UHGV virus genome: UHGV-0236108 | Direction: 5' to 3' (one strand) | DNA length: 31,992 nucleotides | DNA from: a virus | In this document: positions 1-19,753 of the stretch, one piece after another | Layout of the letters: every line of letters begins with the position of its first letter | How positions within the stretch are numbered: position 1 is the stretch's first letter | Made by a program: the position numbers and the translations under genes | The notes under the pieces: generated by a model | Seen by the model: the letters and a program-made list of their open reading frames with translations, nothing else | Databases searched by the model: none | Told to the model about the DNA's origin: nothing

Positions 1-84
1 CTGATGTCCGGCGGTGCTTTTGCCGTTACGCACCACCCCGTCAGTAGCTGAACAGGAGGGACAGCTGATAGAAACAGAAGCCAC
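1..84 (-). CDS. insA: IS1 InsA, N-terminal 28 codons (partial, runs off window)
   Basis: Minus-strand GTG at 84-82 followed by codons for [28 protein letters not shown], the known InsA N-terminus with its CxxC zinc-finger start. Confidence 0.8.
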
Positions 85-139
85 TGGAGCACCTCAAAAA
101 CACCATCATACACTAAATCAGTAAGTTGGCAGCATCACC
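1..139 (-). mobile_element. IS1 insertion sequence, terminal 139 bp (element continues left of window)
   Basis: Reverse complement of 1-139 reads GGTGATGCTGCCAACTTACTGATTTAGTGTATGATGG...GTGGCTTCTGTTTCTATCAGCTGTCCCTCC, which I recognise as the IS1 terminal inverted repeat plus insA start region; element terminus at 139. Confidence 0.85.
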
Positions 140-975
140 GCAAATGCCATTAATACTTCTAAAGTATATCTTCTATAAAATTTAACAAAACCAACATAGA
201 AAACATAGACGAAGAAAAAGCTAAGCATTATTGAAAGTAAACTATAAAGATAATCACTATGAGTACATAATCGATAAATAAAGGTTGGAACTGATACCCA
301 AAATGAAATTATAAAGATTAAACATATGTTTCTGCAAAAACCATATAATGCAACATAGTTTTGAATTTTTGTTTGATGTTGTTTTGAAAACTCATAAACA
401 TAATGATATGCCAATCTGAAGAGATCATCATCAAGTCCGTTTTTATCTTGTAATAATTGGCGATTTGTTATGAACTTTTTCTCATAACCTTCTTTGATCA
501 TTAACCATGTTGTATTAGCTAAATGAAATGGTAGAGATTGAGAATAACATAGTTTTTGTGTTATAAAATCCCATAGTATTATTGGACATAATACGCATTT
601 GATTATGCGATTCTTTATTTTTGTTTTTTTATCAGCGCTTCTCTCATCGCAGGATGGGCTACAAATGCTTTCTGAGGTATCTATCAATTTTTTAAATAGA
701 TATTTGGAAGGATATCCTAATTCTTTATTCATGTATTTTTCGATAAAAAATGCTGACGTGATAGAAATAAAATGTCCAGCTATATAAGATATAATAACTA
801 TTGAAGCGTAGTTCAAAATGCCAAAGATTTGACTTTGACCTCTGAGCAATTCACTTAAGTCAATAACAATATCTAGATCGAATGTCAAACCACAGAAATA
901 CATTAATAGGATAAAAAAACCACCTGGTATTAAATATCCAAGAAAGTCATAGAATGAGAATGGATTTTGATTCAT
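118..975 (-). CDS. AT-rich polytopic membrane protein, 3' end truncated by IS1 (last ~6 codons and stop supplied by the IS1 inverted repeat)
   Basis: ORF-track 118..999; ATG at 975 has a GGAG 7 nt upstream, the TTG at 999 does not. Hydrophobic segments at both ends (FFILLMYFCGL, IVIISYIAGHFISITSAFFI, CLIFIISFWVSV, LLSIMLSFFFVYVFYVGFV). Very low GC versus neighbours. Reading frame crosses the IS1 terminus at 139. Confidence 0.55.
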   Translation of the reverse strand: MNQNPFSFYDFLGYLIPGGFFILLMYFCGLTFDLDIVIDLSELLRGQSQIFGILNYASIVIISYIAGHFISITSAFFIEKYMNKELGYPSKYLFKKLIDTSESICSPSCDERSADKKTKIKNRIIKCVLCPIILWDFITQKLCYSQSLPFHLANTTWLMIKEGYEKKFITNRQLLQDKNGLDDDLFRLAYHYVYEFSKQHQTKIQNYVALYGFCRNICLIFIISFWVSVPTFIYRLCTHSDYLYSLLSIMLSFFFVYVFYVGFVKFYRRYTLEVLMAFAVMLPTY

Positions 976-1083
976 TGTTGCTCTCCAATAATTTTTCAAT
1001 TTGTAATATAACCTATATCTATATGTTAATAAATTACTTATATGTTCTTTTATGGCAGAGTTTGAATTCGTACGTGCTGATTT

Positions 1084-1608
1084 TTACGACTCAGTTAACT
1101 CTTTAAAGCGTTCCATAAACATCCCATAGGTATGGCCTGGCGACAGTGGAATAACTTTGAACATCTCTGTTGCCGGGATACCTTCCAGTACGGGCCAGAA
1201 AGAGCCATCATCAAGCCCGAGATCGCGGCGTTCGGTTGCCAGCATGATGAGATCGGCATATTTCACGGGCGTACTCATAACCGGGGGTAACCCGTATTTC
1301 TCACGGATTACGGCGTCTATTTTTTCTTCCATCCGTTTATAGTCAGGAAGAAGGCGTTTCAGTGGCGCCGGGATGTCCTGGCAATACGCTTCTGTTGCAT
1401 CATGCATTAACGCTTCAAAAGCAAATTCCTGCGGTACCAGTTGGCTGCAAAGCACCGCATGTTGGGCGACGCTGTAGAAATGTGAAAGATGTCCTGCAAA
1501 GCGACAGATATTTGAAAGAGAAACCGCGATATCGTTAATAACGATGTCGTCTTTATTTATCCTGTCATAATAAAAATGCTTCCCGGAAAAAGTTTTAATA
1601 AATGACAT
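1084..1608 (-). CDS. yfdR: HD-domain phosphohydrolase (YfbR-like 5'-nucleotidase fold), CPS-53 YfdR-like
   Basis: H...HD...D metal-binding pattern (GHLSHFYSVAQHAV ... ALMHDATEAY ... D); start placed at ATG 1608 with GTGGAG Shine-Dalgarno (ORF-track GTG at 1635 has none); symbol from remembered similarity and gene order, unverified. Confidence 0.65.
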   Translation of the reverse strand: MSFIKTFSGKHFYYDRINKDDIVINDIAVSLSNICRFAGHLSHFYSVAQHAVLCSQLVPQEFAFEALMHDATEAYCQDIPAPLKRLLPDYKRMEEKIDAVIREKYGLPPVMSTPVKYADLIMLATERRDLGLDDGSFWPVLEGIPATEMFKVIPLSPGHTYGMFMERFKELTES

Positions 1609-1735
1609 TTTGTTCTCCACGTATATGCGCTGCACCGCGCTGAATTCTGGTAAAAGAAAGCCCTCACCATCCGGCGATTATTGAGTCAATTACGTTTCCA
1701 TAAATGCCCCCGCAGGGGCATTTGCAGTAATGAAA

Positions 1736-2560
1736 TCAGGCGGTAAAAGTACCAATAAAGGTTTCTACTTTGCTGTCCTTGAATTTCTCAACAAGCAGAT
1801 CACGAAATTCGTTAGCCATTTCTTCCTGCACTGCTTCCAGCTGAATAATGCGCAGAACCAGTACAGGACGATCGCCAGTGATAATGCTGAGGCGTAATTT
1901 AAACGGACGTTCTTTCAGGCCTTCAAACGGAACGCATTTAAATTCAAATGCCACTGGCATAATATCTTTGGTCTTCGCTTCGACAGACTCCATCAGGGAG
2001 CGTTTGCCGCTGAAGTCATTGTCTTCAAAATCAGCGGTCTGGTTTGCTTCAATCGTGATTTTACGGACTGCCGCAGCCGCTTTTGTTGCCTGAATGGCAT
2101 CACCATTAGCATCAAAGCCCACAAGGTAGTCGGCCCAGTCTTCAATCCATTCTGCCAGTGACTTCTGGGAGTTACGCTCGCCGTTAACAGACAACAGAGC
2201 AGAGAACGGTGCTGTCTTTTTCAGTTTGAGAGTGGCGGTGTTATCTGCGTGACCAGGCTCATCAATAGTACCTAGGTTAAGCACACTGACGGCACGCATA
2301 TTATCGGCATCGATAAAGCAGCGGGTGCCTTCATCCGCAAGATCTTTAGAATAACGGGTAAAGTCATCGATGCTGGCAGTGGAAAGCGCACCACGGAAAC
2401 GGAAGCGATTTAAATTAAATTTTTCCAGATCATGAATGCGGAAATTTTCAGGTAATGCCACTGCGTCGGCACCAATCTTACTGATAATTTCATTAACACC
2501 CTGAGCAGAAATAAGGGCATGGATTTGATTAATTGCGGTTGCGTCTAAGTTCTGAGACAT
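1736..2560 (-). CDS. yfdQ: DUF2303-type prophage protein, CPS-53 YfdQ-like (274 aa)
   Basis: 274-aa ORF with GAGGA Shine-Dalgarno before ATG 2560; length and position between the yfdP-like and yfdR-like genes match the K-12 yfdP-Q-R order; function unknown. Confidence 0.65.
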
Positions 2561-2625
2561 AATAAGTCCTCACTATATAAAGATATTCAGTGATGAGATA
2601 AATAATCAGTTAATTAAGAACGATA

Positions 2626-2988
2626 TTAATGACCTGCTGCGCGGAGTTTTCCGTCAGGTTCACCGGCAAGAGTCAGTAATTGTCCCTGGTCTTCCTGCAG
2701 AATAGTCAGGCGACCACCGCGATTGACATACATCGGCGTTTCGGTGGTGTCTTCTTCGGAAATTTTCCCGCGGTTAGTCGGACGAACATATGAGAGTTTG
2801 TGTTTTATTTTCACACGGTTCTCATCAAACGGTTCGATTTCCAGGTTGAGCGAAACCTTACCTTTGGTTTTCGTGTTCATCACACCGGAAGCGACTTCAC
2901 TGAGAACTGCGCCGATTTTGGTTTCAAATACGCCGCCGTCCAGCTCCCCGATAAATTCCTGCACGTTGGTACTGCGTTCGCTAGCCAT
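2626..2988 (-). CDS. yfdP: small prophage protein, CPS-53 YfdP-like (120 aa)
   Basis: Internal ATG at 2988 preceded by GAGGAG; the longer ORF-track extension to 3306 is Arg/Cys-rich and runs into structured noncoding DNA, so judged not translated. Confidence 0.55.
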   Translation of the reverse strand: MASERSTNVQEFIGELDGGVFETKIGAVLSEVASGVMNTKTKGKVSLNLEIEPFDENRVKIKHKLSYVRPTNRGKISEEDTTETPMYVNRGGRLTILQEDQGQLLTLAGEPDGKLRAAGH

Positions 2989-3425
2989 TTTGCTGCTCCT
3001 CATCATATCGACCCTGCAAGGTCGGTTGGTTTCTCCACAAAACAGAGAAGAACACCTGCGGTGGCAGTCGCCCCGGTGGATTGGGTTATGAGCCCGTCGT
3101 CCGGTGATGCTCTTCTCTGTTTTGTAAAAAGAGCGGTACCAGCCGGAAGCAAGGGTACAAGCTGGTACCGCCAGGACTACACACAGCATAAAGTTGTGGT
3201 GCCGGGTGCCTCCCGGTGCCTGGCGAAGGTTGCACACCAGGCGGGTGGGTATCCACAGAAGGTCGACTGTCAGCCTCAACCTTAACCCGCGTGCGCTGAG
3301 CCGCATTCACCACAACGCTAAGGATTCTCTCAGGTTGAAAATACTTAGCTGTTATGTGCCTGTCTTTTCACCACTTCAGGCTCGGTGGTATCCTTTTAAG
3401 CCCGTATACATAAAAGGAAAATCAA

Positions 3426-3671
3426 ATGACTTTTGATGAAAAAGAACTTGATAATGCAATTAATAAAATCATCGTAACGTCGCTCTTTTCCTGTCTTAGT
3501 GACACTCAGCAAAAACAGTTCTACGAATCGGCTTTCAACATGATCGAGCGTTGTTGTTTCTGCGATGCCGACGAGTTACCTGAAAAAATCAGGAAACAGT
3601 TGGCTGATGCTCTTCGAGTGCGACTTTCTGACCAATTTTCTGAAATGTGCTCTCCGAATTTGGACAAATAG
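3426..3671 (+). CDS. hypothetical small protein (81 aa)
   Basis: AAAGGAAA Shine-Dalgarno 5 nt before ATG 3426; Cys-containing acidic protein; no family recognised. Confidence 0.45.
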   Translation: MTFDEKELDNAINKIIVTSLFSCLSDTQQKQFYESAFNMIERCCFCDADELPEKIRKQLADALRVRLSDQFSEMCSPNLDK

Positions 3672-3864
3672 AAAAAGGCCATTTCCATTCAGGGTCTGAT
3701 GGAAATACTTCAGCCTGTTCCAAAGCACGGCGTAAAGAGAACACAACTCCAGCCATAATCTGATGTTTCCCATTGGTCCAGCTATCGCCGCTCTGATCTA
3801 CAGGGGCGGCTATGTCGTATGACCAAACGACTTCACAGTTATTGTTTAAAATCTGGACTTTCAT
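3589..3864 (-). CDS. hypothetical protein, possible first gene of the leftward early operon (92 aa from second ATG)
   Basis: ORF-track 3589..3885; ATG 3864 has an AGGTG upstream. 3' end overlaps the convergent 3426..3671 ORF by 83 nt and contains a hairpin, so the true extent is uncertain. Confidence 0.3.
   Translation of the reverse strand: MKVQILNNNCEVVWSYDIAAPVDQSGDSWTNGKHQIMAGVVFSLRRALEQAEVFPSDPEWKWPFSICPNSESTFQKIGQKVALEEHQPTVS
3681..3706 (-). terminator. hairpin with downstream T-tract on the minus strand (possible tL-type terminator or attenuator)
   Basis: ATTTCCAT / ATGGAAAT 8-bp inverted repeat with 10-nt loop; on the minus strand followed by GGCCTTTTTCTATTT. Confidence 0.35.
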
Positions 3865-4071
3865 TTCATACACCTGCTTTAACATGAGTGCCTAGTGGCA
3901 CAACATGACTCAACGAATCATCCTGGACTTCATATGCCCCAGGCGGCTACTTCGTGGGCGTCCTGCCTGTTCGTTTTTGACATTTACTGACTGCTTACGA
4001 CACATGCACCGTGTTGCAACCAGATTTTGTTGTAATCCTGTAGTTGGTCTGGAACAAAAGATAAAATTAAA

Positions 4072-4108
4072 TTGCGAGATATGCAAGTAATATTTGCGAG
4101 ATATGCAA
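4072..4108. promoter_or_regulatory. OL-like operator pair: two identical 15-bp palindromes TTGCGAGATATGCAA (4072-4086, 4094-4108) overlapping a likely leftward early promoter
   Basis: Exact direct duplication of a dyad-symmetric 15-mer 7 bp apart, lying beyond the cI terminator as OL/PL does in lambda; same motif family as the site at 4876-4890. Confidence 0.55.
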
Positions 4109-4119
4109 ATTTATAGGTA

Positions 4120-4142
4120 ATAAAAAGCCACCTTTCGGTGGC
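4120..4142 (-). terminator. rho-independent terminator downstream of the repressor gene
   Basis: GCCACC-TTTC-GGTGGC stem-loop (4127-4142) followed on the minus strand by TTTTTA (4121-4126), 20 bp past the cI stop. Confidence 0.6.
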
Positions 4143-4162
4143 CGATGGATGGGATATTGAGG

Positions 4163-4855
4163 TTAATTATGTCTCTTAAGGGTTTGCGACTGACTGATTA
4201 AGACCTTTCCAAAGACCATGAATCGGTGTTCGTTTTCGCTAGTAATTCCCCATTCACGGTAAATCTGGTTATCAGAAATCACCAGCAGTTTGTCAGGAAT
4301 CATTTGAAGTCTTTTAACGTATATTTTGTCATCAAAACCAAAGACATATATACCATCACCATCAAACTGATTGATGCTGACATCAACGAAGATGAGATCT
4401 CCTGGCTCAATGGTTGGACACATACTGTCCCCACGAACGTTGATAACTTTGATGTGATTGGCTGGTCGTCCGCCGAACATTGATACAGCATTATCAGTTC
4501 TGTATTCGATGGCATGAATCACATCAATGACATCACCGCCCTGGATAAGGCCATTTCCCGCACTGGCACTGATATCCAGCATTTCAATACGGAACACATC
4601 CTTCACCTGCGCAACATCCTCATTATTACTGTTTTTATATACAGTATTACTTTTGTGGGCAGAGGTAAAGAGATCAGCAATATCAACACCTAAGCTCTTG
4701 GCAATATTACTCAGTGTTTGTTCGGTAAATTGTTTTTGCTTACCCGTTTCTAAGCGCGAGATGTTCGCCGCATCTACTCCTATCGCTTCAGCGAGATCGG
4801 CGATTTTCATGTTCTTCGCTTGGCGAAGTTGTCTGACTCGGTTTCCTATGTTCAT
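4163..4855 (-). CDS. CI-type prophage repressor: N-terminal XRE helix-turn-helix plus C-terminal S24 (LexA-like) autopeptidase domain
   Basis: HTH segment MKIADLAEAIGVDAANISRLETG; C-terminal half with the S24-family layout (VRGDSMCPTIEPGDLIFVD ... KIYVKRL); no Shine-Dalgarno before ATG 4855, consistent with a leaderless PRM-type transcript. Confidence 0.9.
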   Translation of the reverse strand: MNIGNRVRQLRQAKNMKIADLAEAIGVDAANISRLETGKQKQFTEQTLSNIAKSLGVDIADLFTSAHKSNTVYKNSNNEDVAQVKDVFRIEMLDISASAGNGLIQGGDVIDVIHAIEYRTDNAVSMFGGRPANHIKVINVRGDSMCPTIEPGDLIFVDVSINQFDGDGIYVFGFDDKIYVKRLQMIPDKLLVISDNQIYREWGITSENEHRFMVFGKVLISQSQTLKRHN

Positions 4856-4875
4856 GCGTTTATTACATTTCTTTA

Positions 4876-4940
4876 TTGCGTGATAAGCAAATTAACTTGC
4901 GCAAAATAATTGCGTGAAATAACATGCATAACGCGCAATA
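4876..4940. promoter_or_regulatory. OR-like divergent operator/promoter region between repressor and cro
   Basis: TTGCGTGATAAGCAA (4876-4890) matches the OL palindrome family; further ATTGCG(T/C)G half-sites at 4896-4903, 4909-4916 and inverted at 4931-4940; candidate PR -35 TTGCGC (4897-4902) and -10 TAACAT (4920-4925) ahead of cro. Confidence 0.5.
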
Positions 4941-4952
4941 TTTGGAGGGTAT

Positions 4953-5213
4953 ATGCAATCACCATTACGAAATGTGCGTAAGGCGCATGGTTTCACTTTG
5001 CAGCATGTTGCTGCGGGTGTTCAAGTCAATCCAGCGACGTTGAGTCGTATTGAGAGGCTGGAGCAGATTCCATCTATCGAGCTTGCAGAACGTTTAGCCA
5101 ATTTTTTTAAGGGTGAAGTCAGCGAAATGCAGATTCTTTATCCGGCACGTTTTCAATCTAGCCAAAACCAGAATGGGTTTAAACCACAGGAACAGGAGGT
5201 GAACCGTGGGTAA
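4953..5213 (+). CDS. Cro-like XRE-family HTH regulator (86 aa)
   Basis: GGAGGG Shine-Dalgarno, ATG 4953; HTH signature FTLQHVAAGVQVNPATLSRIE; divergent from the repressor gene. Confidence 0.8.
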   Translation: MQSPLRNVRKAHGFTLQHVAAGVQVNPATLSRIERLEQIPSIELAERLANFFKGEVSEMQILYPARFQSSQNQNGFKPQEQEVNRG

Positions 5214-5243
5214 GCATCACTGGAAAGTAGAAAAACAGCCTGA

Positions 5244-5756
5244 GTGGTACGTGAAAGCTGTCAGAAAAACTATCGCAGCGTTGCCGGGGGGTACGCTGAA
5301 GCTGCTGACTGGCTGGATGTAACAGAGAACGCATTATTTAACCGCCTTCGTGCCGATGGCGATCAGATTTTCCCGCTGGGATGGGCAATGATTTTGCAAC
5401 GTGCTGGTGGAACTCACTTCATTGCTGACGCTGTGGCGCAGTCTGCAAATGGCGTCTTTGTGTCTCTTCCTGATGTCGAGGATGTGGACAACGCCGATAT
5501 CAACCAACGCCTGCTGGAGGTCATTGAACAGATCGGCAGTTATTCAAAACAGATTCGTTCAGCAATTGAAGACGGTGTAGTGGAACCGCATGAGAAGACA
5601 GCAATTAACGACGAGCTGTACCTCTCAATTTCGAAGCTGCAGGAGCATGCAGCACTGGTCTACAAAATTTTTTGCATTTCAGAAAGTAATGACGCCCGCG
5701 AGTGTGCAGCTCCGGGCGCCGTGGCGTGTCGTGACTGTGGAGAAACTAACGCATGA
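5244..5756 (+). CDS. CII-like regulatory protein (phage 186 CII / CP76-type), ~170 aa
   Basis: Position immediately after cro; segment [35 protein letters not shown] resembles the remembered 186 CII segment NKLNPEQPHQFTPPELWLLTDLTEDSTLVDGFLAQ; GTG start, similar length to 186 CII (169 aa). Confidence 0.5.
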
Positions 5757-6091
5757 ACAGTTTAACAACACACTACCGTCGCTCGCAACTGATTGCGCTT
5801 CCTGTACCGGGTGGAAAAGCGAAGGTGGAGTATTGCTATGCAGTAAATGTACCAGGTGGCAGGGTAATTGTAACCCACAGCTTTGCAGAGTGGGCTGTGG
5901 GTGATTTTAACCGGCAAAAGGAGACAGTCCTTTGCGACAAGTTAACCGCTGGTTCAAAGATCACTACGGAGTGCCCGTCAGAGTCATTCGTTGGGAGCCG
6001 GAAACACAACGGGTTATCTACCTCCGTGAAGGCTATGAGCATGAGTGCTTCAGCCCGCTCGAACAGTTTCGTCGTAAATTCAGGGAAATAG
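5753..6091 (+). CDS. hypothetical protein (112 aa); gene model uncertain, see findings
   Basis: ATG overlaps the upstream stop (ATGA) with a GGAGAAA upstream; N-terminal half protein-like, C-terminal half Ser-rich and overlapped by an alternative-frame ORF with a stronger ribosome-binding site. Confidence 0.35.
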
Positions 6092-6100
6092 AGGTCGGTC

Positions 6101-7042
6101 ATGAGCACTAAATTAACCGGCTATGTATGGGATGGTTGCGCAGCGTCAGGCATGAAATTATCCAGCGTGGCAATTATGGCCCGCCTGGCTGATTTCAGTA
6201 ATGACGAAGGTGTGTGCTGGCCATCAATTGAAACCATTGCCCGTCAGATTGGCGCGGGGATGAGTACCGTCAGGACGGCTATCGCACGGCTGGAAGCAGA
6301 AGGCTGGTTAACGCGTAAGGCGCGTCGCCAGGGTAACCGCAATGCGTCGAATGTTTATCAGCTTAACGTTGCGAAGCTTCAGGCAGCGGCATTTTCTCAA
6401 CTGTCAGATTCTGACCCGTCAAAATCTGACGCATCAAAATCTGACCCGTCAAAATTTGATGCGTCGAAATCTGGCAAAAAAGCGGGTTTTCACCCGTCAG
6501 AATCTGGCGGGGATCCGTCAGTAAAATCAAAACATGATCCGTCATATAAAAAACCTTCTCGTCCGGACGCTTCGCAACCGGACACGCAGACGGATGAACA
6601 GGATTTTTTAACTCGCCATCCTGATGCGGTTGTATTCAGCCCTAAAAAGCGCCAGTGGGGAACGCAGGATGATTTGACCTGCGCACAGTGGCTCTGGAAA
6701 AAAATCATCGCCCTGTACGAGCAGGCCGCCGAATGTGACGGCGAGGTGGTTCGTCCCAAAGAACCGAACTGGACAGCCTGGGCAAACGAAATTCGCCTGA
6801 TGTGTGTGCAGGATGGTCGTACTCACAAACAAATCTGCGAGATGTACAGCCGCGTCAGCCGCGATCCGTTCTGGTGCCGTAACGTGCTCAGCCCGTCGAA
6901 GCTGCGGGAAAAATGGGATGAGCTTTCCCTGCGCTTATCGCCGTCCGTCAGCACGTACACAGAAAAACGCGAAGACCCGTACTTCAAAGCCAGTTACGAC
7001 AATGTGGACTACAGCCAGATCCCGGCAGGATTCAGGGGGTGA
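6101..7042 (+). CDS. replication initiation protein, lambda O-like (N-terminal winged-helix DNA-binding domain, iterons inside the gene)
   Basis: N-terminus with HTH-like segment (ETIARQIGAGMSTVRTAIARLEAEGWL); codons 100-150 are the in-frame read-out of the iteron array (SDSDPSKSDASKSDPSKFDASKSG). Confidence 0.75.
   Translation: MSTKLTGYVWDGCAASGMKLSSVAIMARLADFSNDEGVCWPSIETIARQIGAGMSTVRTAIARLEAEGWLTRKARRQGNRNASNVYQLNVAKLQAAAFSQLSDSDPSKSDASKSDPSKFDASKSGKKAGFHPSESGGDPSVKSKHDPSYKKPSRPDASQPDTQTDEQDFLTRHPDAVVFSPKKRQWGTQDDLTCAQWLWKKIIALYEQAAECDGEVVRPKEPNWTAWANEIRLMCVQDGRTHKQICEMYSRVSRDPFWCRNVLSPSKLREKWDELSLRLSPSVSTYTEKREDPYFKASYDNVDYSQIPAGFRG
6403..6555. repeat. origin-of-replication-like element: five tandem 15-bp iterons (6403-6477), degenerate copies, then an AT-rich stretch
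   Basis: GTCAGATTCTGACCC / GTCAAAATCTGACGC / ATCAAAATCTGACCC / GTCAAAATTTGATGC / GTCGAAATCTGGCAA head to tail, then CCGTCAGAATCTGGCGG and an A/T-rich tract (aaaatcaaaacatgatccgtcatataaaaaacc). Confidence 0.65.
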
Positions 7043-7044
7043 GC

Positions 7045-7536
7045 ATGAGTCTTTTGAATGACGTTCAGAAATTCATTGAAGCCCATCCGGGCTGTACTTC
7101 CGGAGACATTGCGGATGCTTTTGCAGGTTACTCACGGCAGCGCGTTCTGCAGTCAGCAAGCAAGTTACGTCAGAGTGGGCGTGTGGCTCACCGTTGTGAA
7201 GGAGATACACGCAGACATTTCTCGCGCCTGACTGAGAGAGCGCAGGAGCCGGAACCACAACCAGTTCGTGAAACCAGACCTGTGCGCAAGTTCTATGTCG
7301 GCACTAACGACCCCCGGGTGATTTTGTGCCTGACCCGCCAGGCTGAAGAACTGGAGTCGAGGGGCTTATACCGTCGTGCTGCAACGGTGTGGATGGCGGC
7401 ATTCCGTGAAAGCCACTCCCAGCCAGAACGAAACAATTTTCTGGCGCGTCGTGAGCGGTGCTTACGGAAAAGCAGCAAGCGGGCTGCATCAGGTGAAGAG
7501 TGGTATCTGTCAGGGAATTACGTGGGGGCTGAATGA
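7045..7536 (+). CDS. PerC-like regulatory protein (CPS-53 YfdN-like)
   Basis: C-terminal LESRGLYRRAATVWMAAF...RRERCL resembles the PerC-family signature; GGGGG Shine-Dalgarno before ATG 7045 (ORF-track GTG 7039). Confidence 0.5.
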   Translation: MSLLNDVQKFIEAHPGCTSGDIADAFAGYSRQRVLQSASKLRQSGRVAHRCEGDTRRHFSRLTERAQEPEPQPVRETRPVRKFYVGTNDPRVILCLTRQAEELESRGLYRRAATVWMAAFRESHSQPERNNFLARRERCLRKSSKRAASGEEWYLSGNYVGAE

Positions 7537-8186
7537 GTAATAAATATTGCCAGGCGCTGGTGGAACTGCGGAACAAACCAGCCCATGAACTGAAGGAAGT
7601 GGGCGATCAGTGGCGCACGCCGGACAACATTTTCTGGGGAATTAACACCCTGTTTGGTCCGTTTGTTCTGGATCTGTTCACTGACGGTGATAACGCCAAA
7701 TGTGCCGCGTATTACACGGCGGAAGACAACGCGCTGGCGCATGACTGGTCAGAACGCCTTGCGGAGCTTAAAGGTGCTGCCTTTGGTAATCCCCCATACA
7801 GCCGCGCCAGTCAGCATGAGGGGCAATACATCACCGGCATGCGTTACATCATGAAACATGCCAGTGCCATGCGTGATAAGGGCTGGCGCTATGTTTTCCT
7901 GATCAAAGCTGCCACCAGCGAAGTGTGGTGGCCGGAAGATGCGGACCATATTGCTTTTATTCGCGGGCGTATTGGTTTTGAACTGCCTGCCTGGTTTATC
8001 CCGAAGGACGAGAAGCAGGTGCCGACAGGAGCGTTCTTCGCTGGTGCTATTGCTGTTTTCGATAAGACCTGGAAGGGATCGGCAATCAGCTACATCGGGC
8101 GCGATGAACTTGAGGCATGTGGTGAGGCCTTTCTGGCGCAGGTTCGCCAGCAGGCAGAAAAACTGGTCAGGGAGATGGCGGCATGA
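7533..8186 (+). CDS. phage orphan DNA N6-adenine methyltransferase (Dam-type)
   Basis: Catalytic motif IV NPPY (FGNPPYS); ATGA start/stop overlap with upstream gene; no adjacent restriction endonuclease gene. Confidence 0.75.
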   Translation: MSNKYCQALVELRNKPAHELKEVGDQWRTPDNIFWGINTLFGPFVLDLFTDGDNAKCAAYYTAEDNALAHDWSERLAELKGAAFGNPPYSRASQHEGQYITGMRYIMKHASAMRDKGWRYVFLIKAATSEVWWPEDADHIAFIRGRIGFELPAWFIPKDEKQVPTGAFFAGAIAVFDKTWKGSAISYIGRDELEACGEAFLAQVRQQAEKLVREMAA

Positions 8187-8509
8187 CGACGTTAACTCAA
8201 TGCCAGCAGCAGGTGCTGGATATGCTGATTTCTTATCACAAAGAACGAGGCTTTCCGCCAACCAATCAGGAGGTGGCAACCATGCTGGGATACCGTTCAG
8301 TGAATGCAGCGGTGGAGCATCTTCGCGCACTGGAGAAAAAAGGCGTCATCACGATAAAGCGTGGCGTGGCCCGGGGCATCACGCTTCATACCGCGGTGAA
8401 GGACGACGACAGCGAGGCGGTCGGGATTATCCGCTCACTGCTTGCCGGTGAGGAAAACGCAAGGCTGCGTGCAACCCACTGGTTACATGAGAGGGGCCTG
8501 AAAGTATGA
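8183..8509 (+). CDS. LexA N-terminal DNA-binding-domain-only protein (no S24 peptidase domain)
   Basis: LTQCQQQVLDMLISYHKERGFPPTNQEVATMLGYRSVNAAVEHLRALEKKGVI parallels the remembered LexA N-terminus ([53 protein letters not shown]); protein ends after ~108 aa. Confidence 0.7.
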   Translation: MTTLTQCQQQVLDMLISYHKERGFPPTNQEVATMLGYRSVNAAVEHLRALEKKGVITIKRGVARGITLHTAVKDDDSEAVGIIRSLLAGEENARLRATHWLHERGLKV

Positions 8510-8895
8510 AGCTGATCCTGCCTTTCCCGCCCAGCGTGAACACGTACTGGCGACACCCCAACAAAGGGGCGTTTGCTGGTAAGAGCCTGATAAGCGCGGC
8601 GGGGCGAAAATTCCAGAGCGCGGCGTGCGCAGCAATAGTTGAGCAGTTACGTCGTCTGCCAAAACCAACGTCGGCACCTGCTTCAGTGGAGATCGTGTTG
8701 TTTCCTCCGGATAACCGGATCCGCGATCTGGACAACTATAACAAGGCGCTGTTTGACGCCCTGACCCACGCGGGTGTGTGGGAAGACGACAGTCAGGTGA
8801 AAAGAATGCTGGTGGAGTGGGGACCGGTTATCCCGGAAGGGAAGGTCGAGATCACTATCAGTAAGTACGAGAAACCGGCGGGTGCAGCCGCCTGA
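8506..8895 (+). CDS. rusA: Holliday-junction resolvase RusA
   Basis: LPFPPSVNTYWRH and DLDNYNKALFDALTHAGVWEDDSQV match the RusA signature (LPWPPSNNRYYRH ... [25 protein letters not shown]). Confidence 0.9.
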   Translation: MKLILPFPPSVNTYWRHPNKGAFAGKSLISAAGRKFQSAACAAIVEQLRRLPKPTSAPASVEIVLFPPDNRIRDLDNYNKALFDALTHAGVWEDDSQVKRMLVEWGPVIPEGKVEITISKYEKPAGAAA

Positions 8896-8914
8896 TTAAG
8901 AGGAGAAACGAAGT

Positions 8915-9712
8915 ATGAATAATCTGATGGTCATTGATGGTATTGAAGTTCGTCGTGATGCTTATGGGCGTTACAGCCTGAACGATCTGCACAGGGCTGC
9001 CGGTTCTCTGGATAAGCATAAGCCTGCATTCTGGCTCCGCAATGAGCAAACTGAACGTTTAATAAGCGAGTTGCAGATTTGCAACTCGGTCAATATAGAG
9101 CCAGTTAACGTTATTCGTGGTGGAAATAACCAGGGGACGTATGTCTGCAAAGAACTGGTGTATGCCTATGCAATGTGGATCAGCCCGTCATTCCATCTGA
9201 AGGTGATCCGTACTTTCGACATGGTAACCAGCGCACCTGAAAAATTATCCGGACAGGCTGCTGACAAGATGCAGGCTGGCGTGATTCTGCTGGACTTTAT
9301 GCGCCGGGAGTTAAATCTGTCTAACTCTTCAGTGCTTGGAGCCTGTCAGAAACTTCAGGAGGCTGTTGGCTTACCGAATCTGGCACCGCGCTATGCCATT
9401 GATGCTCCTGCTGATGCACAAGATGGCTCAAGTCGCCCTACGCTGTCACTGAGTGCACTGCTGAAACAGTATGGTATCCGCCTGACGGCTAATCAGGCAT
9501 ATCACCAGATGGTGAAGCTGGGGATCGTCGAGCAGCGCGAACGATACAGCCGTACCGCGATTAACAACATCAAAAAATTCTGGTCGCTGACAGCGAAAGG
9601 CTGCATGTTCGGCAAGAACATCACCAGTCCCGCAAATCCGCGCGAGACGCAGCCGCATTTCTTCGAGTCCCGATTCCCTGAGCTATTAAAGCTGCTCGCT
9701 ACCGTTCATTGA
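8915..9712 (+). CDS. KilA-N domain protein
   Basis: N-terminal region typical of the KilA-N fold (MVIDGIEVRRDAYGRYSLNDLHRAAG ... KPAFWLRNEQT ... AYAMWISPSFHLKV); C-terminal half unassigned. Confidence 0.7.
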   Translation: MNNLMVIDGIEVRRDAYGRYSLNDLHRAAGSLDKHKPAFWLRNEQTERLISELQICNSVNIEPVNVIRGGNNQGTYVCKELVYAYAMWISPSFHLKVIRTFDMVTSAPEKLSGQAADKMQAGVILLDFMRRELNLSNSSVLGACQKLQEAVGLPNLAPRYAIDAPADAQDGSSRPTLSLSALLKQYGIRLTANQAYHQMVKLGIVEQRERYSRTAINNIKKFWSLTAKGCMFGKNITSPANPRETQPHFFESRFPELLKLLATVH

Positions 9713-9713
9713 G

Positions 9714-10709
9714 GTGACCGTGAGAGCACTACTGACCCCTGAAATTGCCCCGCGTATGGGGATCGTATTGTTCAGACCAGGTTCAGAGCTGATGCCCTTG
9801 TTTATGCAGGGGCGTGTCCTGCTGGAGCCTGAGCCGGAACGTTATTCATCTTTCGCCAGTGGTGCCGTTCCGGCAGCATCACAACCGCTGGCGGATGATC
9901 CTGCCGTTCGGGCCGTGTTCCGCAATGAGGCAGTGATCCGTCGTGCTGGTGGAGTGGAATGTCTTGAAAGCTGGTTACTTCGTGAAAAAGGCTGCCAGTG
10001 GCCTCATTCCGACTGGCACAGCGAGAACATGACCACAATGCGACACGCGCCGGGCGCAATCCGTCTGTGCTGGCACTGCGATAACCAGCTGCGCGATCAG
10101 TTCACGGAACGGCTGGAATCAATGGCAACGGATAACTGTGCCCGCTGGATGTTGTCTGTTGTGCGTCGGGATCTCGGTTTTGATGATAGTCACGTTGTGA
10201 CAATGCCGGAACTATGCTGGTGGCTGGTTCGTAATGACCTGGCGGATGCCTTACCGGAAAGTGCAGCCCGTAAGGCACTGAGATTACCGAAGCCTGTTGT
10301 GCCGTCTGCCACCCGGGAAAGTGACCTTGTTCCTTCGGTTCCTGCCACCAGCATCATCCAGGATAAAGCGAAAAAGGTGCTGGCGCTGAAAGTGGATCCG
10401 GAGTCGCCGGAGTCTTTTATGTTACGCCCCAAACGTCGCCGCTGGGTTAACGAAAAGTACACGCGCTGGGTTAAGACGCAGCCGTGCGCATGTTGTGGAA
10501 AGTCTGCTGATGATCCTCACCACCTGATAGGTCACGGTCAGGGAGGAATGGGGACAAAAACGCATGACCTCTTTGTGTTGCCTTTGTGCAGAAAGCATCA
10601 CGACGAGCTGCATGCAGATACCGTGGCATTTGAAGAGAAGTATGGCTCCCAACTGGAGCTGATATTTCGTTTTATCGATCGTGCGCTGGCAACTGGCGTG
10701 CTGGCCTGA
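9714..10709 (+). CDS. DUF968-type prophage protein with C-terminal Cys/His (HNH-like) motif
   Basis: C-terminal PCACCGKSADDPHHLIGHGQGG...LPLCRKHHDELH; precise start uncertain (GTG 9714 or 9720). Confidence 0.65.
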   Translation: MTVRALLTPEIAPRMGIVLFRPGSELMPLFMQGRVLLEPEPERYSSFASGAVPAASQPLADDPAVRAVFRNEAVIRRAGGVECLESWLLREKGCQWPHSDWHSENMTTMRHAPGAIRLCWHCDNQLRDQFTERLESMATDNCARWMLSVVRRDLGFDDSHVVTMPELCWWLVRNDLADALPESAARKALRLPKPVVPSATRESDLVPSVPATSIIQDKAKKVLALKVDPESPESFMLRPKRRRWVNEKYTRWVKTQPCACCGKSADDPHHLIGHGQGGMGTKTHDLFVLPLCRKHHDELHADTVAFEEKYGSQLELIFRFIDRALATGVLA

Positions 10710-10726
10710 TTTTGTGGAGAAAGTTG

Positions 10727-11089
10727 ATGCGTGATATTCAGATGGTTCTGGATCGTTGGGGAGCATGGGCGGCGAGTGATAGTTCTGGAGTAGACTATTC
10801 TCCTATAGCTGCTGGGTTTAAAGGGCTTCTTCCCTATACAAGCAAAACACGTCAGGCTTGTTCAGATAGTGATGCATTAATTATTGAAGGTTGTCTTGCT
10901 CTTCTTAAGAAGAGAAAACCGTATGAGCACTCTCTGATTGTGGCTCATTACCTGTATGGCATCTCGAAAAGGAAGATAGCAAAAGCATACAAAAAAGATG
11001 AGAAATTGATACGTATAGAGATACAGTTGGCTGAAGGGTTTATAGATGGTTGTCTCTCGATGCTGGATATTCGTTTAGAAATGGAGTAA
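10727..11089 (+). CDS. late-gene antiterminator Q (QuuD-like)
   Basis: MRDIQMVLDRWGAWAA... matches the remembered QuuD N-terminus; GGAG 8 nt before ATG 10727 (ORF-track TTG 10712 probably not the start). Confidence 0.8.
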   Translation: MRDIQMVLDRWGAWAASDSSGVDYSPIAAGFKGLLPYTSKTRQACSDSDALIIEGCLALLKKRKPYEHSLIVAHYLYGISKRKIAKAYKKDEKLIRIEIQLAEGFIDGCLSMLDIRLEME

Positions 11090-11100
11090 TAAAATTAAGG

Positions 11101-11131
11101 CAGCAACATAGAGTTTAACTTTGTTGCTGCG
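11101..11131 (-). terminator. hairpin terminator for the reverse-strand HNH-motif gene
   Basis: GCAGCAACA...TGTTGCTGC 9-bp stem; on the minus strand followed by an A/T-rich run (CCTTAATTTTATTA). Confidence 0.4.
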
Positions 11132-11139
11132 TAACAGAT

Positions 11140-11886
11140 TTAATCTGGCATTATGGTAGATAATTGTGGGCTAGGTTTAACCCCGTAGGTTTCTGATATT
11201 CTTTTAACGTTGATACCTACGATTTTTCTGACAGCTCCCAACGAAAATTCTAACTCTTTAATCCCTGCGTCTTTAGAAGTGTTGTTCATATAATAACGGC
11301 ATGCTTCTCGAATTGACTTGCAAACGATAAATAGAGGTGATTCATCTGGGATTTGAGAAAGCAAAGAGGTCAAACATGTTCTTAACTCTTTGAGTGATTC
11401 GGCAACAAAACAGGGGTTTTCAAGATGATATTCTACGAACAAAGCCCCTTTATCATCCAATTCATTTATAATCTTTTTTGCCAGATTTCTTTCATCATGC
11501 TGTTGAATATATTTCAAAGCATCGAAGGTAATATTAATCGAACCTTCAAGACAGGAGCTTATAAGGCTTTCATGATCTTTTTTCCATTTTCTTAATACAG
11601 GTGCCGGATAGTCTAGCCCCTGATTCTTATCTATTAATACAGAACAAGTAGCACACAGCCATATGCCATTGTTAATTGACTTCCTTTCTGTTTCTGATTG
11701 TGACATGTCATAGCGTGGGCCATCAGGAGATGCTGCACATATGTGAGCAGCAACTCCTGTCTTGATTGATTTATTGCCATCAATTGATGGGCCAATGGTC
11801 AATCTAGGGCATGAAGGGTTTGAACAAATGAATGCTGCCCGCTCTGCTAATTTTTTTATAGTGTCTTTAGAAAAATTATGTCGCAT
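11140..11886 (-). CDS. AT-rich accessory protein with N-terminal HNH-type nuclease motif and an uncharacterised ~150-aa C-terminal domain
   Basis: C-x4-C ... H ... N ... C-x2-C spacing (FICSNPSCP ... VAAHICAASPDGPRY ... NNGIWLCATCS) typical of HNH beta-beta-alpha-metal folds; opposite strand to the flanking Q and lysis genes; low GC; own terminator. Confidence 0.6.
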   Translation of the reverse strand: MRHNFSKDTIKKLAERAAFICSNPSCPRLTIGPSIDGNKSIKTGVAAHICAASPDGPRYDMSQSETERKSINNGIWLCATCSVLIDKNQGLDYPAPVLRKWKKDHESLISSCLEGSINITFDALKYIQQHDERNLAKKIINELDDKGALFVEYHLENPCFVAESLKELRTCLTSLLSQIPDESPLFIVCKSIREACRYYMNNTSKDAGIKELEFSLGAVRKIVGINVKRISETYGVKPSPQLSTIMPD

Positions 11887-11979
11887 GTAGTGAACCCAAT
11901 ATATGAGAAAAATATTACTAACGCGGTCCGCATTTTATCATGTAATGTGTTAAGAGTGGTTACTTCGCCACACAGCTTA

Positions 11980-12009
11980 AACCCGCCGTCGAGCGGGTTT
12001 TGTCGTTTC
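11980..12009 (+). terminator. tR'-like rho-independent terminator downstream of the presumed Q-dependent late promoter
   Basis: AACCCGC-CGTCGA-GCGGGTT stem-loop followed by TTTGTCGTTT; located between the Q gene and the holin as in lambdoid late operons. Confidence 0.55.
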
Positions 12010-12152
12010 TGGGGCTGGGGATTCGTTGGTCCTTGCCTATTCCGCAGTTATCCATTGGTTCGGCTTCTTTGACGTTTCCGCTTCTGATTTGCGGTACATG
12101 ATGTTTCCTCAATTTGCACCTGCTGTATCAGCGAGGTGAGAGATAACTACAA

Positions 12153-12479
12153 ATGCCTCATAACCCAAATACATGGCTGGAGTTGGTCCAGAGCTGGTGG
12201 CGTGGAGACACACCGCTGGGTGCAGTGATTATGTCGATCGTTATGGCTGGTTTGCGCATCGCCTATTTTGGCGGTGGTGGTGGCTGGAAGCGAAAAACGC
12301 TCGAGATTTTGCTATGTGGCGCTCTGACGCTGACCTTTGCATCCGCTCTTGAGTATGTCGGATGGCCTAAATCGCTTTCTGTTGCCATTGGTGGTGGCGT
12401 GGGGCTGATCGGTGTCGATGCTATTCGTGGGGCTGCAATGCGAGTAATCGGTAACAAATTTGGTAGCTCGAAGGAGTAA
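12153..12479 (+). CDS. holin (lambda S-like class I, three predicted transmembrane helices)
   Basis: First gene after the late terminator, directly upstream of the endolysin; hydrophobic segments AVIMSIVMAGLRIAYF, LEILLCGALTLTFASAL, LSVAIGGGVGLIGV; charged C-terminus. Confidence 0.8.
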   Translation: MPHNPNTWLELVQSWWRGDTPLGAVIMSIVMAGLRIAYFGGGGGWKRKTLEILLCGALTLTFASALEYVGWPKSLSVAIGGGVGLIGVDAIRGAAMRVIGNKFGSSKE

Positions 12480-12482
12480 TTT

Positions 12483-12959
12483 ATGCAGGCACTAAATTCC
12501 CAGCGTAAAGCTTTCCTGGATATGGTGGCATGGTCAGAAGGAACGGATAACGGGCGACAACCGACACGTAACCACGGTTATGATGTTATTGTTGGTGGCG
12601 AACTGTTCACTGATTACTCCGATCACCCTCGCAAACTTGTCACGCTAAACCCCAAACTCAAATCAACAGCCGCCGGACGTTACCAGCTTCTTTCACGCTG
12701 GTGGGATGCTTACCGTAAACAGCTTGGCCTGAAAGATTTTTCTCCGAAAAGCCAAGACGCTGTGGCATTGCAGCAGATTAAAGAGCGTGGCGCTTTACCG
12801 ATGATTGATCGCGGTGATATCCGTCAGGCTATCGATCGTTGCAGCAATATCTGGGCGTCGTTACCTGGTGCAGGTTATGGTCAGTATGAACATAAAATCA
12901 GTGACCTGATTTCCCGGTTTAAAGAGGCTGGTGGGGTGGTAAATGAAGTTGAGCTATAA
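12483..12959 (+). CDS. R: endolysin, lambda R-type lytic transglycosylase
   Basis: Near-identity over the whole length to the remembered lambda R sequence (NQRKAFLDMxAWSEGTDNGRQ.TRNHGYDVIVGGELFTDYSDHPRKLVTLNPKLKST.AGRYQLLSRWWDAYRKQLGL...). Confidence 0.9.
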   Translation: MQALNSQRKAFLDMVAWSEGTDNGRQPTRNHGYDVIVGGELFTDYSDHPRKLVTLNPKLKSTAAGRYQLLSRWWDAYRKQLGLKDFSPKSQDAVALQQIKERGALPMIDRGDIRQAIDRCSNIWASLPGAGYGQYEHKISDLISRFKEAGGVVNEVEL

Positions 12960-13335
12960 GCTGGTTATCGCTGCATTCTTCTTTACTGTCATCGGTTCTT
13001 TCATCTGGTCTGCCAACCACTACTACAGCAAATATCAGCACGAAAAGAAACGTGCTGATGAGGCTGTACAAAATGCCAAATCGGCAACTGTCATTACCAA
13101 TAACGTCCTGCAATCACTGCAAATCGTCAATACAGTTCTGGAGGCTAACCAGTATGCAAAACAGCAGATCACACTGGAGTCACAGAGAACCCAGGAAGAT
13201 ATCAAAGTGGCTGTTGCGGATGATGATTGTGCTTCACGTCCTGTGCCTGCTGCCGCTGCTGACCGGTTGCGGAAGTACGCGAACAGTTTACGTGCCTATT
13301 CCGGCGGTACCGTTGCCAGCAAGCCTGACTACTGA
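12943..13335 (+). CDS. i-spanin (Rz-like)
   Basis: Overlaps endolysin stop; N-terminal transmembrane anchor LVIAAFFFTVIGSFIW then charged, Gln/Ala-rich periplasmic region. Confidence 0.65.
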   Translation: MKLSYKLVIAAFFFTVIGSFIWSANHYYSKYQHEKKRADEAVQNAKSATVITNNVLQSLQIVNTVLEANQYAKQQITLESQRTQEDIKVAVADDDCASRPVPAAAADRLRKYANSLRAYSGGTVASKPDY

Positions 13336-13492
13336 AACTCCCCAGCCAGTTATTCCCGATCCTCTGACCTATGGGGCCAGCCTGGATCTGAATGTGAGCC
13401 TGCTTTCGGCGTTGGGACAATGCAATATTGACAAAGCGGGGATTAGAAGTATCGAGATGCGCCGTAACGTTTTGCTGGCAGCAGGCAAATAG
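13220..13492 (+). CDS. o-spanin (Rz1-like lipoprotein), +1 frame, overlapping and extending past Rz
   Basis: Signal peptide MMIVLHVLCLLPLLTGC with lipobox LTGC, Pro-rich mature region (VYVPIPAVPLPASLTTETPQPVIPDP). Confidence 0.55.
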   Translation: MMIVLHVLCLLPLLTGCGSTRTVYVPIPAVPLPASLTTETPQPVIPDPLTYGASLDLNVSLLSALGQCNIDKAGIRSIEMRRNVLLAAGK

Positions 13493-13518
13493 TCTGGACA
13501 AAGAACAGGAATATATTT

Positions 13519-13869
13519 ATGCCTCCTCGAACCCCAAAAGCCTGCCGCGTTCGCGGCTGCCCCCATACCACCACTGACCCGTCAGGCTATTGCGAAAGGC
13601 ACAAAAGCGAAGGCTGGAAGCAATACAAGCCAGGCCAGTCCCGTCATCAGCGCGGTTATGGTTCGAAGTGGGACAGTATCCGCGCGCGCGTCCTGAAGCG
13701 TGACAAAGGTTTATGTCAGTTATGTCTGCGTGCCGGTGTGGTGCGTGAAGCTAAAACCGTTGACCACATCATCCCTAAAGCGCATGGCGGCACTGATGCC
13801 GACTGTAATCTGCAGAGTCTGTGCTGGCCGTGTCATAAGGCGAAGACGGCCCGTGAACGACTTAAGTGA
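13519..13869 (+). CDS. HNH endonuclease associated with the packaging module
   Basis: CxxC ... DHIIPKAHGGTDADCNLQSLCWPCH ... canonical HNH motif; sits immediately upstream of terminase small subunit. Confidence 0.85.
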   Translation: MPPRTPKACRVRGCPHTTTDPSGYCERHKSEGWKQYKPGQSRHQRGYGSKWDSIRARVLKRDKGLCQLCLRAGVVREAKTVDHIIPKAHGGTDADCNLQSLCWPCHKAKTARERLK

Positions 13870-13879
13870 TAATAATTCT

Positions 13880-13950
13880 CAACTGTCTGAGGGGAGGGGC
13901 GAGTCAAATCTCTGTGACCTGACGTCTTCCGGACTGCCCGCCCCATCGTT
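13880..13950. other. candidate cos / packaging-recognition region
   Basis: G-rich imperfect dyad (GGGGCGAGTC ... GACTGCCCGCCCC) between the HNH and terminase genes, the usual cos position in HNH-plus-terminase phages; unverified. Confidence 0.25.
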
Positions 13951-13994
13951 TTTTTATACCCGCGAAAAATGAAATTTAACCAGGAGTGCCGCAT

Positions 13995-16219: not shown

Positions 16220-16230
16220 CTGAGGTAATT

Positions 16231-16413
16231 ATGATCATGCTGATTCTCGCGCCTCTGGTGGGCGTGCTGGGGGCGCTTTTGCTGGCGTATGGTGCCTGGC
16301 TGATTTATCCCCCGGCGGGGTTTGTTGTTGCCGGGGCGTTGTGCCTGTTCTGGTCGTGGCTGGTGGCGCGATATCTTGACCGTACACAGTCGTCTGTCGG
16401 CGGAGGTAAATAG
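16231..16413 (+). CDS. small two-helix membrane protein between terminase and portal (60 aa)
   Basis: GAGGT Shine-Dalgarno; two hydrophobic helices ([38 protein letters not shown]); stop overlaps portal start. Confidence 0.5.
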
Positions 16414-18282: not shown

Positions 18283-18296
18283 TCAGGAGAAATACG

Positions 18297-19502: not shown

Positions 19503-19507
19503 TCACT

Positions 19508-19535: not shown

Positions 19536-19550
19536 GAAGGGTGAAGAATC

Positions 19551-19751: not shown

Positions 19752-19753
19752 GT

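Follow-up and report, generated by a model that had tools for sequence, protein, structure and literature searches.

The virus genome UHGV-0236108 (31,992 nucleotides; 'the window' below means this whole stretch) carries a cI-type repressor gene on its minus strand, and within the coding sequence of that gene lies a 20-bp palindrome that is very likely a selected, functional operator for the host LexA protein. A LexA operator would normally be expected at a promoter rather than deep within the coding sequence of a phage repressor. The site is followed on the sense strand of the gene by a conserved ribosome-binding site and an in-frame start codon, which implies a nested, LexA-controlled short isoform of the repressor. 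We consider it probable, from these comparisons of related genes, that the site gates this C-terminal isoform of cI. The gene and the site, referred to hereafter as the box, are located as follows.

4163..4855, minus strand: full-length cI-type repressor, 230 amino acids (aa), 100% identical to the SfII cI protein.
4627..4646, minus strand: probable LexA operator (SOS box), TACTGTATATAAAAACAGTA on the cI sense strand, codons 70-76.

The immunity region is ~99% identical to that of Shigella phage SfII, and the window derives from a lambdoid, SfII-like phage. The repressor has helix-turn-helix (HTH) domains at residues 3-64 (HTH_3 and HTH_26) and a Peptidase_S24 domain at residues 104-218 (Pfam), separated by a linker at ~65-90. 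A first-pass annotation had reported the 20-mer TACTGTTTTTATATACAGTA, as read on the plus strand, to be a near-consensus SOS box in this linker and the only CTGT-N8-ACAG in the window. The 20-mer was confirmed at 4627-4646, inside the cI-type gene, where it spans codons N70-T-V-Y-K-N-S76 between the HTH and S24 domains; it contains the sole CTGT-N8-ACAG of the 32-kb window. It differs from the ideal LexA site TACTGTATATATATACAGTA at two spacer positions, the 16-bp palindrome being intact.

The bare 16-mer pattern is not in itself significant, as 0.44 occurrences are expected per window and at least one was present in 36 of 100 shuffled sequences. The full site was assessed with a LexA weight matrix made from Escherichia coli sites, a scan of the whole window that had been suggested in the first-pass annotation. 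The box scored 27.3 bits and the next best site 8.4 bits, so that the scan revealed no second LexA-like site in the window. None of 200 shuffles reached the score of the full site (best shuffle, 19.4 bits). When identical training sites were removed the box still scored 26.4 bits, above 24 of the 26 remaining sites (range 12.6-27.3). On the cI sense strand it is 100% identical, base for base, to the umuDC operator of E. coli K-12. We infer that LexA binds at 4627-4646.

The box was found to be conserved in cI orthologues. Its arms were invariant, and the bases directly flanking it variable, in six phages that are ~91-99% identical (SfII, mEp460, Stx2a_1447, 1720a-02, phiSTEC1575-Stx2k and PhiR47_1). 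At lower levels of aa identity, a box was present at the same codon position in the cI orthologues of Salmonella (83%; TACTGTATGTAAACACAGTG), Klebsiella (71%; TACTGTACATATAAACAGTG), Escherichia phage Eeyore (67%; TACTGTATGTAAATCCAGTG) and Cronobacter ENT47670 (50%; TACTGTAGATACATACAGTG). It was missing in HK022/P22-like homologues of ~43% identity in the phage database. A genomic scan of one genome per species yielded 34 full-length orthologues with at least 46% identity, and 31 of these had a box of 16.5-29 bits in the same codon register. The box-bearing genes came from ~17 genera: Shigella, Citrobacter, Kluyvera, Klebsiella, Trabulsiella, Pantoea, Buttiauxella, Rosenbergiella, Proteus, Serratia, Rouxiella, Enterobacter, Atlantibacter, Erwinia, Ewingella, Mixta and Pseudescherichia. 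A larger set of 229 unique genes was reduced to 61 representatives, of which 45 were box-bearing (<90% aa identity to each other) and 16 box-less. The CTGT/CAG arms occupied the same codon register in 45 of 48 representatives of the clade, down to ~46% aa identity, and box strength was 14-29 bits across nearly all orthologues of this set. The box was also intact in 80 of 80 near-relatives from IMG/VR. The cI family itself was detected in 1040 of 5426 complete E. coli genomes (~19%), as well as in Stx2a- and Stx2k-converting phages, the serotype-converting phage SfII of Shigella and ST64B-like Salmonella prophages. Two lineages inside the box-bearing clade, Dryocola (L026/L027) and Yersinia (L043/L327-L331), have lost the box; L027 retains a degenerate, GC-rich CGCTGTGCAAAAGCACAGCG.

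The pattern of conservation within the box was then compared with that of the surrounding gene. Information content was 2.0 bits at each position of ACTGT and CAGT, compared with 0.1-0.5 bits in the flanking linker. Both the linker protein around the box and the box spacer varied among orthologues, and, apart from T71, V72 and S76, no residue was invariant from position 64 to position 88 of the protein alignment. In the 45 box-bearing representatives, the third positions of codons 70-76 carried 1.42, 2.0, 0.99, 1.85, 1.27, 2.0 and 2.0 bits, respectively, against a gene mean of 0.51 +/- 0.47; the synonymous positions of the box are the most conserved of the cI gene. Thr71 was encoded by ACT and Ser76 by AGT in 31/31 genes (43% and 19%, respectively, gene-wide), and Val72 by GTA in 21/29 (22% gene-wide). 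The commonest amino acid accounted for merely 49% of residues at codon 73 and 40% at codon 75. With third positions fixed even at codons whose amino acid differs, conservation at the box is stronger in the DNA than in the protein. Retention of the arms while the spacer drifts is the signature of a protein-binding palindrome rather than of recombinational homology. Synonymous changes that wreck the palindrome in related phages had been named in the first-pass annotation as evidence to look for against its reading; the opposite was seen, the arms being kept. Their persistence in register through ~50% protein divergence, together with identity to the umuDC operator, strongly supports the view that the box is a site for host LexA.

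In box-bearing genes a Shine-Dalgarno-like purine run, composed mostly of AGA/AGG Arg codons, and an in-frame start codon (GTG or ATG, codon 87 or 84) lie 29-32 nt past the box on the sense strand. In the window these signals are:

4603..4608, minus strand: Shine-Dalgarno-like AGGTGA, 5 nt before the GTG of codon 87.
4595..4597, minus strand: proposed start of the short isoform, in-frame GTG (Val87), on the grounds of codon bias and co-occurrence with the box.
4617-4621, minus strand: second Shine-Dalgarno-like sequence, GAGGA, 10 nt before the GTG of codon 84.
4604-4606, minus strand: alternative start, GTG (Val84).
4163..4597, minus strand: predicted nested open reading frame (ORF) of 144 aa (147 aa from Val84), with the cleavage-site region and the S24 domain but no HTH.

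Codon choice around these signals is strongly biased. Arginine was encoded by AGA or AGG in 23 of 24 cases within the eight codons before position 87, compared with 31% elsewhere in these genes. At column 87, GTG accounted for 24 of 28 valine codons (22% gene-wide); two lineages had ATG, and the Salmonella allele TTG. An in-frame start with a Shine-Dalgarno interaction of -5 kcal/mol or stronger was present between codons 80 and 96 in 43/45 box-bearing but only 1/16 box-less representatives, and a start codon exactly at column 87 in 40/45 and 2/16, respectively. The box-less Dryocola genes have GGT or GGA (Gly) and the Yersinia genes TCA (Ser) at codon 87, so that the start has gone along with the box. 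Box-less relatives are unconstrained at this column (T, I, Y, S or G); the restriction to Val, Met or Leu in the presence of the box is therefore best explained by use of the codon as a start. Beyond the box, neither the remaining frames nor the opposite strand contained another conserved ORF. The out-of-frame ATG within GATGTG was considered as the true start and rejected, as it vanishes where the Asp codon differs while the in-frame GTG persists.

Transcription of the nested ORF would require a promoter within cI, for which the following elements are candidates.

4664..4669, minus strand: candidate -35 hexamer TTTACC, 17 nt upstream of the -10 hexamer, in codons L62-F63-T64.
4641..4646, minus strand: candidate -10 hexamer TACTGT, coinciding with the left arm of the box, in a umuDC-like geometry.
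4633..4636, minus strand: predicted transcription start, ~7 nt past the -10 hexamer and within the box spacer, placed by geometry only.

Promoter geometries on both strands were scored at 31 loci with a simple two-hexamer weight matrix. The sense geometry (-35, N17, TACTGT) was the most consistent, with a mean of 5.0 bits, whereas every antisense layout had a mean of 2.0 bits or less. TTTACC-N17-TACTGT scored 7.3 bits, compared with 8.0, 7.8 and 6.3 bits for the putative rightward (PR), leftward (PL) and repressor-maintenance (PRM) promoters, respectively, of the same phage. The same geometry, as TTGATC-N17-TACTGT, gave the top match upstream of umuD (8.9 bits). A LexA-repressed sense promoter of weak to moderate strength inside cI is plausible on this basis.

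The predicted product can be described from the landmarks of the full-length protein. Ala99-Gly100 (4556-4561), Ser144 (4424-4426) and Lys181 (4313-4315) are invariant in the alignment of cI orthologues; all features of the self-cleaving class are present, and cI is predicted to be a cleavable S24 repressor of the cI/LexA type. We propose that, in an undamaged lysogen, host LexA bound to the box would keep an internal sigma-70 sense promoter shut, and that read-through transcription from PRM may add to this silencing. Depletion of LexA after DNA damage would allow transcription to start inside the box, giving a short mRNA with a ~35-nt leader, on which the Shine-Dalgarno sequence would direct translation from the GTG at 4597..4595 (codon 87) or 4606..4604 (codon 84). 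The product would be an N-terminally truncated cI of ~144-147 aa that retains the S24 domain, including Ser144 and Lys181, and the region around Ala99-Gly100, but has no HTH. S24 repressors dimerize and cooperate via the S24 domain, as established for lambda cI and LexA. Because this domain mediates dimerization, the short form would most likely pair with full-length cI through the C-terminal domain and act as a self-encoded antirepressor: in mixed oligomers the DNA-binding heads would be too few, lowering operator occupancy and cooperativity and hence repression. Inactivation of LexA would in this way reinforce or gate prophage induction, alongside the self-cleavage of cI stimulated by activated RecA (RecA*). 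Operators as strong as the box are derepressed late in the SOS response, so production of the short isoform would be a commitment step under sustained damage. Both the production of the short isoform and the direction of its effect on repression are what we infer from the arrangement of the gene.

Several observations weigh against this proposal. Promoter scores of at least 7.3 bits arise by chance ~0.8 times per kb per strand, and the Pantoea-type alleles score only ~4.9 bits in the sense geometry. The candidate -35 hexamer falls within conserved Leu-Phe-Thr/Ser codons, which makes its own conservation uninformative. A stricter consensus scan of 4000-5300 found no promoter at all; as it was blank even at the right (OR) and left (OL) operator regions, that scan is too strict to be informative. 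The start signal is not uniform either. In the commonest E. coli allele (mEp460 type) codon 87 is GTA, and a GTG at codon 84 with GAGGA upstream, at a longer Shine-Dalgarno spacing, would have to serve instead; one subgroup has a start at neither codon, its sole candidate being a GTG at codon 95. Fisher tests of the association between box and start gave p-values of ~1e-7 to 1e-11, which overstate independence because the genes share ancestry, with one presumed origin and two or three co-losses. Since cI keeps Ala-Gly, Ser and Lys and looks self-cleavable, a second route to induction is not evidently needed. An opposite effect is equally conceivable, in which the short form shields cI, for instance as a decoy for RecA*; Hex of phage 434 stabilizes lysogeny in this manner.

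Other explanations for the box were weighed against a LexA-gated isoform. LexA bound in the ORF, ~250 nt from PRM, might act as a roadblock that attenuates cI transcription from PRM and the repressor-establishment promoter (PRE); loss of LexA would then raise cI and buffer the lysogen, and no internal promoter would be involved. This would suit an operator of the highest-affinity class that is strong (14-29 bits) in nearly all orthologues, and an internal promoter that is not compelling from sequence alone. However, it leaves unexplained the co-conserved Shine-Dalgarno sequence and in-frame start 29-32 nt downstream and their loss together with the box, and the truncated, non-stop cI transcripts that it predicts would be wasteful. 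Repressor roadblocks in translated genes are usually dislodged by trailing RNA polymerases, and we know of no established LexA roadblock. We regard a roadblock as unlikely. An antisense promoter repressed by LexA, on the plus strand, would send a transcript against cI and PRM into OR and cro, so that SOS induction would silence cI by interference or antisense RNA and express cro. Such logic is compatible with induction; the box is palindromic and AT-rich, giving -10-like hexamers on both strands, and at some loci antisense candidates match the sense ones (8.9 bits at L018 and 10.1 bits at L021). Yet none of the antisense geometries held up from locus to locus (their best mean was 2.0 bits, that of the sense geometry 5.0 bits), the positions outside the box at which an antisense -35 or -10 would fall are unconserved (0.1-0.5 bits), there is no conserved antisense ORF, and the sense-strand ribosome-binding site and start would again lack an explanation. 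We think this, if anything, a shade less likely than a roadblock.

The box might also be primarily the operator of a LexA-like protein encoded by the phage itself, regulating cI in lytic growth, for example, rather than a host LexA site. The first-pass annotation had linked the box to this gene:

8183..8509, plus strand: phage LexA DNA-binding-domain-only protein, 108 aa (LexA_DNA_bind, E 2.7e-19).

Its product is ~50% identical to residues 2-69 of E. coli LexA and retains the recognition helix (RS-NAA-EHL), the window has no LexA-like site besides the box, and every E. coli or Shigella phage in the database with a box-bearing cI also has the paralogue. Nevertheless, the paralogue lacks the LexA dimerization domain and was present near only 4/31 box-bearing genomic loci, being absent near the box-bearing loci of Klebsiella, Pantoea, Erwinia, Proteus and Serratia. 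Its gene forms part of a dam-lexN-rusA module that accompanies box-bearing cI and also box-less, unrelated cI types (phages SfV, SfIV and cdtI and Stx2c phages). Its linkage to the box is thus no general feature, and host LexA, not the paralogue, is the conserved partner; that the box belongs chiefly to the paralogue is very improbable. As the only LexA-like site in the window, the box may still be acted on by the paralogue where both co-occur. Least credible of all is the view that the box has no regulatory role, being a chance palindrome, a T-V-x-x-x-S protein motif or a DNA linker for the exchange of N- and C-terminal modules. The expectation of 0.44 bare 16-mers per window, the AT-richness of the linker (39.5% GC) and the mosaic nature of the C-terminal-domain family, which is joined to several N-terminal domains, would fit such a view. 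Against it stand the score of the full site, which no shuffle reached, third codon positions that are invariant despite amino-acid variation, arms conserved around a variable spacer, and the lack of a box in the mosaic relatives with other N-terminal domains. Chance in an AT-rich linker, which had been left open in the first-pass annotation, is rejected by the full-site score and by conservation at the DNA level, and on the sequence evidence we regard chance, a protein motif and a recombination linker as excluded as origins of the box. Of the earlier interpretation, the part concerning host LexA was strongly supported and the link to the paralogue, as a general feature, was not; a nested isoform had not been foreseen.

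The proposed LexA-gated isoform most resembles the umuDC system of E. coli. The 20-bp operator is identical in the two, and in both the TACTGT of the box is the candidate -10 hexamer in the best-scoring promoter geometry. The predicted short cI would be like UmuD in having a cleavable N-terminal arm followed by an S24 fold, without a DNA-binding domain, and the C-terminal part of cI can be aligned to UmuD, including GDSM (Ser) and VKRL (Lys), although the similarity is weak (E ~2e-4). Unlike umuDC, the cI unit shares its reading frame with the phage repressor gene that encloses it, and its presumed target is its own repressor and not a polymerase. It also lacks a umuC partner, cI being followed by a terminator and OL with no polymerase gene adjacent. 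On the Phytobacter plasmid pMRY16-398_1 (L092), a near-identical umuD box, TACTGTATATAAATACAGTA, is found at 901-944, directly upstream of a Shine-Dalgarno sequence and ATG. About 1,350 plasmid records gave brief matches to a 60-nt query around the cI box, mostly comprising the box and AT-rich flanks. A common origin with plasmid umuD promoters was considered and rejected, since the matches (44 nt, 84%) consist of the box and AT-rich flanks only.

Nested in-frame isoforms made from internal promoters or starts are known from Tn5 transposase/Inh and from the phiC31 repressor gene c. Tn5 Inh is truncated at its N-terminus, cannot bind DNA and, by oligomerizing, poisons the full-length protein. 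The cI gene would be similar, with a candidate internal promoter and a putative in-frame start, covarying with the box, within the ORF of a regulator. In Tn5 Inh and phiC31 c, however, the short form is constitutive or otherwise controlled and damps activity; neither is an SOS-gated switch in a cI/S24 repressor.

LexA-controlled antirepressors offer another parallel. Ant of phage SPC32H is reportedly one of these. Others are Tum of phage 186, AntC of N15 and GfoA/GfhA of the Gifsy phages (PMC3121763). As with all of these, a host LexA operator in cI would gate a product that inactivates the immunity repressor non-proteolytically. The known LexA-controlled antirepressors are encoded by separate small genes unrelated to the repressor, and the repressors concerned are usually not self-cleaving. 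Unlike antagonists of the Tum, Ant or GfoA type, the candidate here would consist of the last 144-147 aa of cI, read in the same frame, and cI keeps Ala-Gly, Ser and Lys. A second protein overlapping a lambdoid repressor gene is also known in phage 434, where Hex modulates RecA-dependent induction (PMC3564112). Hex differs from the cI box locus in both frame and control: it is translated from another ORF of the PRM mRNA that overlaps in part, is made in the lysogen, is not controlled by LexA and stabilizes lysogeny by blocking RecA-stimulated cleavage (PMC3564112). In GIL01, LexA itself is the phage repressor, acting with gp7 at lytic promoters, and gp6, a homologue of the LexA N-terminal domain, activates the late promoter (PMC4551915, PMC6182141). 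The present phage is like GIL01 in being temperate, with a probable host LexA operator in its own circuit and a protein consisting of the LexA DNA-binding domain only. Unlike in GIL01, LexA would here repress a gene nested within a conventional cI.

An operator of umuDC strength thus appears to have been kept by selection across the Enterobacterales inside a repressor coding sequence. Text searches of the literature found no account, for this cI family, of a LexA operator within the gene or of a short isoform. If the proposed isoform exists, it would constitute a third coupling of prophage induction to DNA damage, through a self-encoded antagonist nested in the repressor gene. The other two are self-cleavage of the repressor (lambda) and control by LexA of a distinct antirepressor gene (186, N15 and Gifsy). 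The strength of the LexA operator, and not the cleavability of cI alone, would then set the threshold and timing of induction. As the cI family is common and occurs in Stx2a and Stx2k phages, this could bear on the induction of Shiga-toxin phages by antibiotics. The box would also be a case of overlapping codes, a transcription-factor site dictating three invariant residues in an otherwise free protein linker. The 8183..8509 product has no S24 domain and so would not be cleavable. A widespread repressor-within-repressor switch can be envisaged, in which the SOS signal would act on this cI family by two routes, cleavage stimulated by RecA* and the loss of LexA control over a nested, UmuD-like isoform that either poisons full-length cI or reprograms it in some other way, with the non-cleavable paralogue possibly re-closing the operator later in lytic growth; this fuller scheme is advanced tentatively, as a possibility that falls somewhat short of probable.

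The remaining features of the immunity region have a lambdoid arrangement, with cro at 4953..5213 on the plus strand followed by a CP76/YmfL-type cII, and with the cI terminator at 4126-4143. The putative operators of cI itself lie in two intergenic regions.

4856..4952, no strand assigned: OR region between cI and cro, with TTGCG-N5-GCAA-type operators (e.g. 4876-4890) and divergent PRM and PR.
4070..4112, no strand assigned: OL region downstream of the cI terminator, with TTGCGAGATATGCAA twice (4072-4086 and 4094-4108), putative cI operators unrelated to the LexA box.

The putative cI operators at OR, TTGCGTGATAAGCAA and related copies at 4874-4940, are likewise unrelated to the LexA box. 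No Rfam family reached the gathering score anywhere in the window (1..31992).

Two prophages for which relevant data exist were considered. The e14 prophage of MG1655, for which LexA chromatin immunoprecipitation data are available, was set aside, as its repressor YmfK is not an orthologue (a 39-aa local BLASTP match) and has no box. In Salmonella D23580, the ST64B prophage gene STMMW_20241 (2098186..2098881) is an 83% identical cI orthologue with the box, in a strain for which dRNA-seq has been published. Lytic genes of this prophage, together with STnc1310 and STMMW_20251/20261 on the PL side, rise in peroxide and nitric oxide shock (PMC7067206, PMC6333337). STnc1310 was considered as an internal cI transcript and rejected, as it is located downstream of cI and not within it; the values for ST64B cI, in transcripts per million, cannot tell the isoforms apart.

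Eight IMG/VR contigs (L319-L326) that match residues 80-229 only were examined as possible stand-alone homologues of the C-terminal domain. They proved to encode full-length repressors that join a C-terminal domain of the same family (54-59% identity) to unrelated HTH domains at the N-terminus, and they have neither box nor start codon at the aligned position, illustrating domain-level mosaicism at the linker. Two further candidates were dismissed, L063 being a decayed pseudogene and L069 a scrambled assembly. In Erwinia persicina (NZ_JACYMO010000007.1; L046), a 41% identical cI homologue at 6001-6690 lacks the Ala-Gly pair, the internal box and the Shine-Dalgarno sequence. A LexA box of 20.9 bits is present at 4538, 1.46 kb upstream of this cI, and may mark a classical arrangement with a LexA-controlled antirepressor.

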